Positions 26,704-61,805 of a stretch of 64,000 bases of DNA are shown one piece after another. Source of the DNA: Mytilus trossulus. Its lineage: Eukaryota. Location of the stretch: contig NC_086381.1 in NCBI RefSeq assembly GCF_036588685.1, positions 56,978,001 to 57,042,000 of the forward strand, written 5' to 3'. Made by a program: the position numbers and the translations under genes. Below the pieces are notes generated by a model. That model was not told the DNA's origin, made no database searches, and was given only the letters and a program-made list of their open reading frames with translations. Numbering within the stretch: position 1 is the first letter of the stretch; every line of letters starts with the position of its first letter.

Positions 26704-29700
26704 CTAGTGTTGATGTGTATTGGATTTTGGTGGTACACCTCCACCTCCCGTTCTCTTTTTGATGCATTTCTTGTAGGAGCAGGTGTAGTTATCACAACAG
26801 TCATTATTAGATGTGCAATTTCTTCCTGTACATGTTTTGCAGAATCCAGATATGCAGCTATAACCATAACAGCATGCAAGATATGAGCAACTTGCATATC
26901 CACATGCAGGAGCTCTTTTCACCAGCCTAAAACAAAACAATACGTATTTGATAAAAGGTTTATAACAGTAGATCCTGTATGTTATAATTGGTGAATATCT
27001 GAGCATTTGGTAAGTAAGTTTTACCTGAAGAATGAACCATTCTGCAACGTTTATTACCATACGAGTTTGTGTTTATTATACGTCAAATAGTTATCAAAGG
27101 TACCAGGATTATAATTGAGTACACCAGACGCATGATTCGTCTACATAAGACAAAAACTGCTAAAATGTAAAATGCTAAACATATGCAATGCAATTAACAA
27201 TTAGCACCTAGCCTTACGTTTGTCCGAAACTGTACGTGCATATCTACTAGAAGTATACTTCGATAGTTTTATCTTTGTTCAATGAGAACGTATCTAGGAT
27301 ACAGCCTCTAAATTAAAATCTACTCAGTTATTTATAAATCATTACTTGTTGTAGTAATCTTTAGTTAAAAACTTCAAAATAGCCTTTCTTGTCTTGATGG
27401 ATGAACGCAATTTCTGAAATTATCAAAGTCAATATCAGAAATGTATGATTTCATTAACATGATTAATATATTATATAAAAGATCATTATATATTGTCGTA
27501 TAAGCATGATTAAGGTAGCACAATACAAAGATTTTTTTACTTCCAATTAATAACATTTGAAATGCTGTAACTTTCTTATGAATGCATGGAAAATAATAAA
27601 AGAGGTACATATAGATAGATAAAAGATTAATCTTTTAAATGAATGTAATATTTTTATTATGCAATCATTATGTATTCAATTATTATGTAATTAGTGGCAA
27701 AATCTGGGTAAGGTCACTTAAATGAATTTAGCTCTTTCATCTCTTTAACTTTACAGAAAATTTTAACGAAATCTTAATCAACACATCATGGGCTTCAAAA
27801 GGGTGTCTCAGATTGTCTCTATGGTATTCTATTCTCTCATAAATCTCCAATTAGTGAAACATCCTAACCACATAAAAGAAGATAATGTTTAATTAGGTGT
27901 AAAATTTGTTCTATACATTCTATCTGAAATCTGAGACACCCTTTTGTAGATAATGTCCATAGGAACAACATATACTTAAATCAAGCCTCTAGGGATACCT
28001 ATGCAGAAGCTAATTTCATTTGAAAGTGGAAATTTGGTGAAAAATATTTTAGACACCGTTAACATTATAATTGGTTACACAATTGTTGCATAATGCTAAC
28101 ATTGCATTAATTTGAAAGAGTAATCTGTTAGCTATCCAAAAATACCACTTTTATAAATTTTCAAGCATTATTAAGAAAGTTACAGCATTTTAAAACTTGG
28201 TAGTTGGAGTTATAAAATCTTTGTATTGTGCTACCTTAAGTCGTTATTTGTATTCATATTACTGAGGATATATTTATTTTCGTTGAAAAATTTGATTTCA
28301 TGTTTAGGCCAAAGGCTGCTAAAATCAAACCATATCCACGAAAATTGAAATTGGTATGCAAAGAATAATAATGAATACATGGTAATCAGGATGGATTATC
28401 GGAAATAAAGTATTCACTGTTTGCATGCGGTATGGAAGTAAAGTTAGCATGTGTTTGTCTTCAGAGAGTTTCAAAATAATTCTTCCTCGAGAGAATTTGT
28501 AACAGGTTACATTAACCAATTGCTATAAGGATTAGATTGAGCAATGATGATTGTTTAGATAATTTTTGAGGCAGGTTTTGAACCTGATCGTTGTTTTATT
28601 AATATGTTTGTTTTATCAAATTCAAATAATCGATAATAACTGTACAATACCGAAGAAAGGCGATAAGTATTTAAATTAAAATAGAACTCGTGAGTCAATC
28701 GTTCATCCTGACCATGTGCTCTGGTGTTTAATTCAACTTACGTATGTATATGCATGTTGTCTTTAATCATTCCGTCATTTGCCTTGTTGGCTAAAAGTAA
28801 AGTAATAATAATATGATTCGTCGTGCACGAATATACTGTCAATTGTTTCAAAGTCAACAAAATATATATGAAAGGTCATCATACATCGTCGTATTCAAAT
28901 TACTGTGGATTCATCTATTTTCGTGGGTATCAATCTTAAACACTTTAAAAATAAAAAAAATAATGATATCAATTCTAAGGTTAGTTCGCGTGCACAACAG
29001 TGTCATGGGAATAACATTGAGCATGTATGCTCTCAATTATACCAACACTTGTTTAAATATCCCAATATCAGTATTGAAACATTAAACATGTTCAAAAGTT
29101 ATATATTTGACAAAAATCGTCATATTCTTACTTCGTTTAATACAATAATACGCATTGTTACATTTACGTTAGTTTGTAATAAATATACCATATTTTTCAT
29201 CCTGCTTTTCCCGTTACACATGTGGATGTGCGATGTTACAGACATAAAGTAATTGTGTTGGAATTGAAGTAAATAATGTTTCGCCCCAATTTCTTAACAA
29301 TTGAAAGGTATAGAGTTCTAAACATCATCTGTGATCTTTTTGTAAATTATAAACCTTAAGCTAAATAAGCCAAACAAAATATGATTGTTATCAACATACA
29401 TGATAGAAAAAATTCCAAATTCTATTTTCTAATTTCATCACACCATCTTTCGACCCATATTAGATGTAGCTGATTTAAACAATATAGTCTATAAAACTAA
29501 TTAGATATATTAAAGTGGACAATACTAACTGCAATATGTCTCAAGTTAATAAGACAAAACAATAAATACCATTATCAATTTGTTTAATGTGTGCATGTCA
29601 GTTTGAATTACTATTTTTCAAAATTGAAATTATTCGTTTTTTATTGGATTTTGATACTTATTATGTCCTTTCTGTGACATTTTGATAAAACATTGTTGTC

Positions 29701-58946: not shown

Positions 58947-61805
58947 CTAGTGATGCTGTATCTTGGAATCGATACCAGGTCTTATACCGCCACCTGCACT
59001 TCCTGATCTACATTTATTGTAGGAACAAGTAAATCCATTACAGCAGTCATTCTTTGAATTGCAATCTCTCCCTACACAAATTTTACACAGTCCAGAAATG
59101 CAGCTATAACCATTACAGCAGGGAATATGTGGGCAACTTGTATACCCACATACTGGAGCTCTTTTTACAAGCCTAAAAAACAATATGAATTCGATAACAT
59201 ATTTATCACACATAATAACCCCATCATAGATACAAGGCTAAATTTGTATAGTAATGATTGATGTATAACTTCGCATTTGGTGAACAAGCGCTACCTGAGA
59301 AAGGACACCATACTGCATCGTATGCACCAACACAGGTGTAAGTGTATTATACGTCAAACACCTATAATTGCCTAATCCTATGTTTGTCCGAAAATGTACT
59401 TTCAGATCTACTGGAAGTTAAATTCGAATGATTAATATGGGGTCAATTATCTTATATCAAGTATTAAGCATACAGCCTCTTGATTCGATTTGACCCAAAT
59501 ATGTGTATATTATAACGGTTAGTATTCATCTTAAGATACAATAACTCAACAGATCTATTCTTTGCTTGATGAATGCATATATATTTTTTTTCTGAAATCA
59601 AAGTCAAATGGGAATCATTGATACATTATCAATAATAAATCATTTTAACAAGATAAAGTTGTTATATGTATTCTTATTGACCAGGACAGGTTGATGGACA
59701 AATACTTTTTTTTTATTTGCATACGATATAAAGTTTATTGATGTCATGTCTTTTGATAAATTAATAGTTTTTATCGTTGAAGATTACACTAGTTAAAACA
59801 GTTTGCTATAGGATTTGCATGCGCTAATGTGCTCTTAAAGTGTAGGTAGATTTTGCACCACATGAGACAAGTAATCAATTATCGAACCGTATTTCACCTC
59901 ATTTGCATCGTACGTGACGTAAGTCACTGTCAACGTCAAGCAAATATATCACACTCTCTTATTGTGTATGTTTGTCACATCATTAAATGAATTATGTGTT
60001 ACTGAGTATTCGCTAGATTTGTATTTGACAGAAGCAATGTAATTAATGACTTCTGATATAAGAAACCTCTTCCTGTAATGTTGGTTGTCTTATCGGGTAT
60101 TGTGAAGCTATTGGGATAAATGCAGTTCTTTCTTTTTCACTTTTGTTGAAATTTGATATGTGTCTTCCTTGTTTATATTTTGTTTATACATAATTTCACG
60201 CAAAATTCTTAATTACCACAATGTATGTCATCATGACGTTTGTTATTCCATTTTTTGTTAGTATATCATTTTATATTGATAAAAAAATCGTATAATAAAA
60301 AAGCAATGACTGAGGCTGTTTGCCTTTTTTGTGCTTCTTTGTTACATTTGTTTGTTTTTATAGTGATGAAGATGATAACACAATATTGACTGATGTACCC
60401 CCTTTTATGACATGTTTACCTATTGTGTCGGTTTGTCAATATAATCGAATTTGATGCGACTATTCGTTTAAAGTGTACTTACGTATGTATATACATGCTG
60501 TCTTTGGTCATTTCGTCATTTGCCTTGTTGGCTGAAAGTAATGATAATATGCTTTCATAACATTGACACCTGTTTTTCCAAGTCAACTCCAAACACTTTA
60601 AAAATTAAAAATGAGATATATTCTAGTTCGTGTGCACATCAGTGTCATAAGAATAATACTGAGCATTTATGTTATTAGGTATACCAATAGCTCAACACGC
60701 TGTTCGATATCCGCATAGATTATTGCTAGACTCAAATTGTTCGAACGGAATAAGATTTTAAAAAAAACTCTATTGTCTTCGTTTATTTACTTTTATTGTA
60801 TGCGTTGTTTCATTTACGTTAGTGTGTAACCCATATATCATATGTTTTCCGTTACAGGTGTTATAATTGCGATGTTAAAGAACACAACTAAATTCAGTTG
60901 AGTGTTAAAAAAAGGAATCGAGATACGTTTTATATAATTAATAAGTTATAGACCGCGAGCTGTTTAAAATATGAACCTTACATTGTAACTAAGGTAAGCT
61001 AGCCAAATACCATTTCTATCGAAAGTCAGGAAAGGCAGATTTCTCATTTTATGTTCTGAATTCATACCTATCTTTTAAACAATGTTACAGATAGCTCAAT
61101 GCAACTGTAGTTATCGAATCTTATCACAGATATCCAAGTTATAAACGTTATTAACTTAATCTGTCTTTAGGTGATATGACCACAAAACACATACAAGTTC
61201 AACTATTTAGATTTCAGTTTAAATTACTATTTGTTTCTGTTATCATTTGGTTAGTTATTGGGTTAATATTTGGATGTAGTAATTTTACGATATTTTGCTC
61301 ACATGTCGTTGTCAATATCTTTGAATTCTAATCGATTGTGAAATGTTTGGTTAGCTATACAACTAGGTTTACTCCACAATTTTCTACATAAGGAAATGCA
61401 TATACGATATCAGATATATGATATTTGTTATCTATTCATTCGATGTGTTGGAGTTTTTGGTTTTGTCGTTTCATACTGTTCAATTGGGAATTCCCTATAA
61501 GTTTGACATGCTTATTGTTACTTTTTTTGTATGCAAGACGCTTATTTGGTATTCTATTATGTTATATTCGTTGTTTTCAAAAACATGCTTTCTTACGTTC
61601 CCTATCAAAATACAAACAGATAAGGATAACCACTGCACTCCATGTTCAACGTGTTTTTTTTGAACGAATGAGTCCGTATTTTTGAGAAGAAAATGAAATT
61701 TTACAAATAAGGAATAAAACTGCATGTTTAGACTTAAAATATTATTGTCTTACCTCCAACAGACACCAACACTACCAACAGAACTAAACATTTAGATATC
61801 TTCAT
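58947..61805 (-). CDS. CRP-I-like double-module cysteine-rich pre-pro-peptide, gene 4 (subtype A), 108 aa; coding exons 61805-61754, 60531-60483, 59172-58947
   Basis: 52+49+226 nt, canonical splice sites: MKISKCLVLLVVLVSVG-ANKANDEMTKDSMYIHT-LVKR-APVCGYTSCPHIPCCNGYSCISGLCKICVGRDCNSKNDCCNGFTCSYNKCRSGSAGGGIRPGIDSKIQHH*. Confidence 0.9.

Follow-up and report, generated by a model that had tools for sequence, protein, structure and literature searches.

In this work we have analysed a 64,000-nt window of the Mytilus trossulus genome (NCBI RefSeq assembly GCF_036588685.1, contig NC_086381.1, positions 56,978,001 to 57,042,000), which carries four intact genes of the mCRP-I type, arranged in tandem on the minus strand. 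By window we mean this whole stretch, and positions are counted from its first letter unless a contig label is given. A six-frame scan found the pattern C-x4-C-x4-CC-x4-C-x4-C-x2-C-x4-C-x5-CC-x4-C-x4-C four times in the window, always on the minus strand, with first cysteines at 26904, 42798, 48118 and 59150; the same exact 12-Cys pattern did not occur in 50 base-shuffled windows. The array spacing is identical in all four genes (4-4-0-4-4, then 2, then 4-5-0-4-4), and the two six-cysteine arrays, here called modules 1 and 2, are joined by the linkers KT, KM, KM and KI in genes 1 to 4. The original prediction, made by a model from the letters alone, had described this double pattern with a two-residue linker, and the scan confirms it; the loops that it quoted for module 1 (SYLA/RIRR/KYRR/PHIP and ISGF/TNGF/VYGF/ISGL) and the consensus that it gave for module 2 (C.GR.C.S..DCC...TCSY.KC) were found to be correct when rechecked, and no dibasic site lies between the modules, as it had also claimed. 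The interval it assigned to the genes, 26750 to 59160, holds for the last exons but falls short of the full coding extent, which reaches from 26704 to 61805.

In each of the four genes the exon with the arrays is preceded by a 52-nt (phase 1) and a 49-nt (phase 2) coding exon with GT-AG sites. In gene 1 (mCRP-I η) the signal-peptide exon (30145-30196, 52 nt, phase-1 donor) is followed by an intron (28791-30144), the pro-region exon (28742-28790, 49 nt, phase-2 donor), a second intron (26927-28741) and the last coding exon (26704-26926), which holds an LVKR site, module 1 (26839-26904), the KT linker, module 2 (26764-26832), a KKR site and a Gly/Pro tail. Gene 2 (mCRP-I ο) has its signal-peptide exon at 44540-44591, its pro-region exon at 43330-43378 and its last coding exon at 42607-42820, with LIKR, module 1 (42733-42798), KM, module 2 (42658-42726), KR and a tail. 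The same elements are found in gene 3 (mCRP-I θ), with exons at 48945-48996, 48685-48733 and 47912-48140, the last one encoding LIKR, module 1 (48053-48118), KM, module 2 (47978-48046), KR and a tail. In gene 4 (mCRP-I ξ) the exons lie at 61754-61805, 60483-60531 and 58947-59172, and the last one encodes LVKR, module 1 (59085-59150), KI, module 2 (59010-59078) and a Gly-rich tail without a dibasic site. The spliced precursors have 107, 104, 109 and 108 residues and the same order in all four genes, namely a hydrophobic leader, a pro-region, KR at residues 37-38, AP-x, module 1, K-x, module 2 and a C-terminal Gly/Pro tail of 16-21 residues; KR or KKR directly follows module 2 in genes 1-3, gene 4 being without it, and the mature peptides have a pI of 8.5-9.4. 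The signal peptide of gene 4 (61754-61805, minus strand) has a Lys at residue 5 where a database homologue has an Ile.

Splicing of gene 1 is visible in RNA, as both introns are skipped in one run of raw reads (12 and 9 reads) and also in assembled contigs of further runs, the transcript ending in poly(A) near 26627. One contig departs from gene 1 at 30222 into letters that were not placed, and in a second raw-read run placed on gene 1 the exons were not covered. For gene 4, one contig with an imperfect joint links the upstream exons, 60530 to 61754.

Judged by sequence, genes 1 to 4 are the Mytilus mCRP-I two-array groups η, ο, θ and ξ, respectively. This assignment was made by near-identity to Table S3 of Gualandi 2023 (PMC10138031), the Greek names being taken from the supplement letters h, o, q and x. 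In a by-eye comparison with that table, genes 1 and 4 give mature peptides with the very sequences of η1 and ξ2, while genes 2 and 3 give peptides that are each one residue off, from ο4 and θ1 respectively, both changes falling in module 2. The spliced precursor of gene 3 is identical to a database protein labelled M. trossulus, and of the 16 candidates in the homologue search (lengths 36-125), 4 proteins were kept, each with a Mytilus label. The qPCR primers published for multi-MgCRP-I 3 (PMC4558851) fit gene 1, one of them perfectly and the other with a single mismatch, and η1 is the new name of multi-MgCRP-I 3 in Table S1 of Gualandi 2023 (PMC10138031).

The hallmarks of the CRP-I family are present in the four genes: a putative signal peptide (hydrophobic N-terminus) and a pro-region ending in KR at residues 37-38, the C-C-CC-C-C array, here two per gene, phase-1 and then phase-2 introns, a first coding exon of 17 residues, and arrays confined to the last exon, which begins in the final pro-region residues as in the family description. 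That description gives a pro-region exon of about 100 nt, whereas ours has 49 nt. Gerdol 2015 (PMC4558851) described multi-MgCRP-I precursors with 2-4 modules, 2-4 residues apart and in one exon; Gualandi 2023 (PMC10138031) reported 2 to 5 modules per mCRP-I, modelled these proteins as a "pearl necklace" of knottins, found the largest diversity among groups in the N-terminal array, and grouped η, θ, ξ and ο as a monophyletic clade whose members have two arrays and a C-terminal extension. The four genes have what characterizes this clade (a linker of 2 residues where 2-4 are described, tails of 16-21 where 15-20 are described, and 0-1 residue of difference from Table S3); they share with the published groups (PMC4558851, PMC10138031) the precursor layout, intron phases, KR site, two arrays, short linker, extension and clustering, and differ from them by allele-level substitutions only. 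Publications of 2015 and 2023 already contain the genes and their architecture, the spacing of 2-4 residues, the knottin model and the finding that the first array is the more diverse one. By our own count in Table S4, η is carried by 20, ο by 10, θ by 6 and ξ by 3 of 23 genomes, and across 215 samples η was expressed in 58% and ξ in none (PMC10138031).

The window lies inside a CRP-I cluster (G000:C9:56925224-57231968) with single-module genes on both flanks and genes of 2-4 modules in the middle, the same layout as described for the M. edulis cluster. A pattern scan found 24 Cys-array last exons within 464 kb around the window. Four were set aside (one that has lost a cysteine, one with a frameshift, a degenerate one and a deletion derivative), and 5 single-module and 15 multi-module exons were retained for comparisons, the upstream exons being checked for part of them. 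The linker has two residues at 30 of the 32 junctions of the 15 multi-module exons and is dibasic at none, so the short linker is a trait of the subfamily rather than a peculiarity of these four genes. The degenerate multi-module exon lies at 57171564, and θ-like two-module copies are found at G000:C9:56918636-56918828 (plus strand) in the cluster and at G000:C43:3433407-3433596 (plus strand) on another contig, both matched in two frames, the latter with a frameshift in module 2. The first-module spacing is 4-4-4-4 in genes 1-4 and 6-4-4-4 in 9 of the 15 cluster genes; the text of Gualandi 2023 (PMC10138031) gives nearly all first arrays one array type.

Is module 1 more variable than module 2? 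The original prediction held that the first module is variable and the second conserved, and it had the direction right, although the effect is weak. In 5 of the 6 gene pairs more divergence is seen in module 1, with summed nonsynonymous differences per site (pN) of 0.24 against 0.14 in module 2 at similar synonymous differences (pS, 0.35 against 0.33; Cys codons included), but for the four genes the asymmetry is not significant (p=0.07-0.28): the variable non-Cys columns are 12/16 in module 1 and 9/17 in module 2 (Fisher p=0.28), and the parsimony steps 22 and 14 (permutation p=0.074, binomial p=0.14). It is reversed between genes 1 and 4 (η/ξ), which differ at 8/17 columns in module 2 and at 7/16 in module 1. 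Within the published groups, counted by eye in Table S3, the variable columns in modules 1/2 are 4/0 for η, 0/4 for θ, 3/2 for ο and 8/4 for ξ, which gives 15/64 against 10/68 (p=0.27); among the θ variants the asymmetry is again reversed, with module 2 more divergent. The by-eye comparison of genes 2 and 3 in the original prediction was exact, with 12 replacement and 6 silent changes over 171 nt, nine of the former falling within module 1 or immediately ahead of it. Positive selection, considered on the basis of this 12:6 count, was rejected, since the count lies below the neutral ratio of sites of about 3:1 and does not show such selection.

At the level of single loops, computed without Cys codons and to be read as a description, the hot loop in the four genes is loop b of module 1 (pN 0.63 against pS 0.16, pN/pS 4.0, 4 codons) and the cold one is loop e of module 2, the terminal SYKK loop (0.21); the other six loops lie at 0.6-1.1, and three of the four loops of module 2 at 0.8-1.1. 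When the rates were checked on a larger alignment, that of the 15 multi-module genes, the constraint on loop e of the last module held, this being the sole clearly constrained loop (0.45), and the hot loop b of the first module did not, its pN/pS dropping to 1.15. In the same 15 exons, the mean loop identities are 0.21/0.16/0.30/0.40 for first modules and 0.33/0.44/0.47/0.75 for last modules. Module 2 shares the spacing 4-5-0-4-4 and the motif DCC.GY.CSY.KC with free-standing sCRP-I H peptides, so a role as passive scaffold is not supported. The division of labour that had been put forward, with module 1 as the specificity determinant and module 2 as a constant scaffold, is not supported in that form by these comparisons, because the excess is mainly that of one loop, most loops of module 2 are near a pN/pS of 1, and the asymmetry is at times reversed.

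The loop comparisons suggest a repeat unit that would be offset by half a module. In loop e the nucleotide identity of first to internal modules is 0.61 and that of last to internal modules 0.39, while in loops a and b the amino-acid identity of last to internal modules is 0.21/0.33 and that of first to internal modules 0.04/0.07. The N-halves of the single-module peptides vary strongly (0.09, 0.09) and their loop d is mostly GYx; in Table S3 the ending GYxCSYxxC, which is like that of module 2, is found in groups A, H and J. Within each gene, when one module is set against the other at an offset of 75 nt, 15-19 of the 24 nt around CC-x-GY-x-C are the same. A θ/ο-like paralogue (G000:C9:57047290-57049146, minus strand), met about 5.5 kb beyond the window at G000:C9:57047479, has lost exactly these 75 nt, from CC to CC, so that the N-half of module 1 runs straight into the C-half of module 2 and one hybrid knot remains; its tail combines θ-like and ο-like ends. 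This paralogue is likely a pseudogene, because the splice acceptor of its pro-exon is non-canonical. Turnover of the repeats appears to proceed from one CC to the next, and extra modules are probably gained and lost when CC-x-GY-x-C stretches cross over unequally but in register. In the spider peptide Hc1a both modules are in one exon, and unequal crossing-over gave the hybrid single knot Hc3a (PMC13172734). Gualandi 2023 (PMC10138031) noted gains and losses of in-between arrays and left their mechanism open. Four motifs from the hybrid paralogue had no match in the text of the 2023 supplement, Table S3 included, and neither the hybrid neighbour nor the loop-level rates were found in the 2023 text or Table S3, the figures of that paper being a place that could hold them.

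An AlphaFold model built on the four-sequence alignment has a mean predicted local distance difference test score (pLDDT) of 72 and a predicted template modelling score of 0.47, with the modules at about 80 and the tail below 50. The structure prediction proposed as a check returned two alike beta-hairpin units, one per module (residues 18-27 and 43-52, pLDDT about 80), and a reading as two tandem knottin-like modules is reasonable; the fold matches that came with it are weak, all with E of at least 0.3. The best Foldseek match is Dkk4 CRD1 (E=0.3), which spans both modules, followed by the double inhibitor cystine knot (ICK) peptide Xt3a (E=1.0) and by further weak matches to single ICK toxins and squash inhibitors; the best score in an ESM Atlas search was 0.81, which we take as a lead only. 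A Pfam scan of the four mature peptides found no family at its cut-off, the matches to Toxin_12 and Toxin_24 both falling below it, and a search with a sequence profile against the PDB gave 3 matches, none with E<0.05 (best E=0.058). Dickkopf_N (PF04706) scored 13.9-17.4 bits against a cut-off of 25 in three of the four peptides (E 0.006-0.07) and did not match the fourth. Membership of the Dickkopf N-terminal domain was considered and rejected, since the scores are below threshold and 12 cysteines stand against a 10-Cys pattern.

Dkk4 CRD1 (PDB 5O57, PMC6078440) has two disulfide-rich subdomains joined by C63-x2-C66, the second one an ICK, with no crossing bonds, and by analogy it is a solved precedent for the C-x2-C junction. 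It differs from mCRP-I in having ten cysteines, four of them in the first subdomain, and in being part of a larger Wnt regulator, and the matches between the two are sub-significant. DkTx, Hi1a/Hc1a and Xt3a have two ICK-type modules, as is predicted for genes 1-4, but they come from venoms, their channel targets are known and their avidity has been measured, and the linkers of DkTx, Hi1a and Xt3a have 12, 6 and 4 residues (PMC9950431) against 2 in genes 1-4; a linker of two residues is typical of Bowman-Birk repeats as well (PMC9885460). As there is no significant sequence match to the double-ICK toxins, the likeness is likely convergent.

We propose, with a probability of roughly 60%, that these genes encode secreted cationic double-knottin peptides, made as signal-pro-KR precursors, whose modules stay joined and both serve as functional surfaces, and whose likely role is defence against eukaryotic parasites or grazers. 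A convertase would cut at KR and release the mature peptide, and the Gly/Pro tail of genes 1-3 would be trimmed at the KR or KKR after module 2. Bonds C1-C4, C2-C5 and C3-C6 may form within each module, and the C-x2-C junction could produce a compact two-lobed unit, as in Dkk4 CRD1; the modules probably remain joined. The N-terminal loops, chiefly loop b, would vary as they do in single-module CRP-I, and the terminal GYxCSYxKC half would be the common C-terminal half of the family, so that both modules are likely functional surfaces, not a warhead and a scaffold. In the family papers the single knottin-bonded member assayed is sCRP-I H1 (H1), which has one module and a C-terminal amidation-type tail, while genes 1-4 have two modules. 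Synthetic H1 showed no antibacterial activity up to 32 µM and no inhibition of four proteases, reduced the viability of SH-SY5Y cells by 30-40% at 10 µM or more, and caused 45-63% mortality of Galleria larvae at 48 h, against 13% in controls. Together with the presence/absence variation and the haemocyte and larval expression of the subfamily, this activity would make defence against eukaryotes the most likely role.

Several points weigh against this proposal. The case for defence depends on one peptide with a single module, whose effects, seen at 10 µM or more, were modest, and functional or proteomic studies of any mCRP-I were not found in the two family papers or in searches of open papers, although subscription papers could hold more. 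Synthetic single-module peptides, once oxidatively refolded, had bonds 1-2, 3-4 and 5-6 and no knot, and Gerdol 2015 (PMC4558851) favoured cleavage into single modules. The AlphaFold model is of moderate confidence and comes without a disulfide readout or a significant fold match: Foldseek gave 0 matches at E<=0.001, and the best Z in the VIA wide fold search was 2.6. The C-halves of the single-module peptides are no closer at the DNA level to last modules (0.52) than to first ones (0.51), and the loop statistics come from non-independent pairs with 4-5 codons per loop and are descriptive. For genes 2 and 3 no intron joints were listed in four RNA runs, in which repeats swamped the signal; since these runs had been selected by gene 1, this is no evidence that the two genes are silent.

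By analogy with Hi1a, in which activity resides in the N-domain and avidity is gained through the C-domain (PMC13172734), the peptides might be bivalent double-ICK molecules whose target specificity is set by module 1, with module 2 as a constant anchor that raises avidity. The divergence of module 1, the higher loop identities of last modules in the 15 exons, the diversity of the first array reported in 2023 (PMC10138031) and a linker that is short and uncleavable by the dibasic rule all agree with this; we nevertheless consider it unlikely, because the asymmetry is non-significant in the four genes and in the published groups and is reversed in η/ξ and within θ, because module 2 evolves for the most part near a pN/pS of 1 and matches free-standing sCRP-I H, and because the number of modules varies from 2 to 5 across the family. 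An extended version, in which rigid bivalent double knottins with the shortest linker relative to the solved examples arose independently in a bivalve without venom, with loop b of module 1 diversifying under selection against a parasite target, the SYKK hairpin keeping a conserved site and CC-to-CC crossing-over tuning valency from one to five, seems to us just as doubtful.

Quite improbable in our view is a polyprotein precursor cut into two single knottins and so co-expressing two variants. The 2015 proposal was made on the grounds that cysteines and pI are retained in each module (PMC4558851), cleavage was left possible in the 2023 paper (PMC10138031), and all four linkers have a single Lys after Cys6; against this, none of the 32 linkers has a dibasic site, a protease would likely have poor access to a pair of residues enclosed by disulfide-bonded cysteines, and the solved C-x2-C junction of Dkk4 CRD1 forms one domain (PMC6078440). 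That the 12 cysteines form one domain with inter-module bonds or a non-knottin pattern, with a colipase- or Dickkopf-like role in signalling or binding, is very unlikely: the best Foldseek match covers both modules, three of the four peptides have sub-threshold Dickkopf_N matches and refolded synthetic single modules did not form knots, but all the Dickkopf-type matches are below cut-off, the disulfides of Dkk4 are confined to each subdomain (PMC6078440), and modules are gained and lost as whole six-Cys units, with single-module relatives in the same cluster.

Other elements are present in the window. A 327-aa open frame at 20005-20988 (plus strand) encodes a Tc1/mariner-type transposase (HTH_Tnp_Tc3_2, DDE_3). 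In the region 15052-17449, a 340-aa open frame at 15525-16547 has no Pfam match at E<=0.01 and is flanked by near-identical direct repeats (15052-15234/17267-17449, 98%; also 16615-16790/17095-17270); by eye it resembles the tyrosine recombinase of a DIRS-type retroelement. Fragments with Phage_integrase and DUF3504 matches at 34730-37019 (minus strand) presumably belong to a decayed Crypton-type element. Tandem arrays with periods of 193, 52 and 161 nt occupy 1838-2590, 2714-3022 and 22113-23116.

What do these genes mean for the family? As a discovery they matter little, the genes, the architecture and the variable first array being in print already. The turnover of repeats from CC to CC would be a concrete candidate mechanism for the gain and loss of modules that was left open in 2023, and it parallels the spider Hc1a/Hc3a case. 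If bivalency were true, mussels would provide a natural set of peptides, from one knot to five, with a very short linker, in which avidity could be studied outside venoms, and this would help to assign a function to an orphan immune family that varies by presence and absence.

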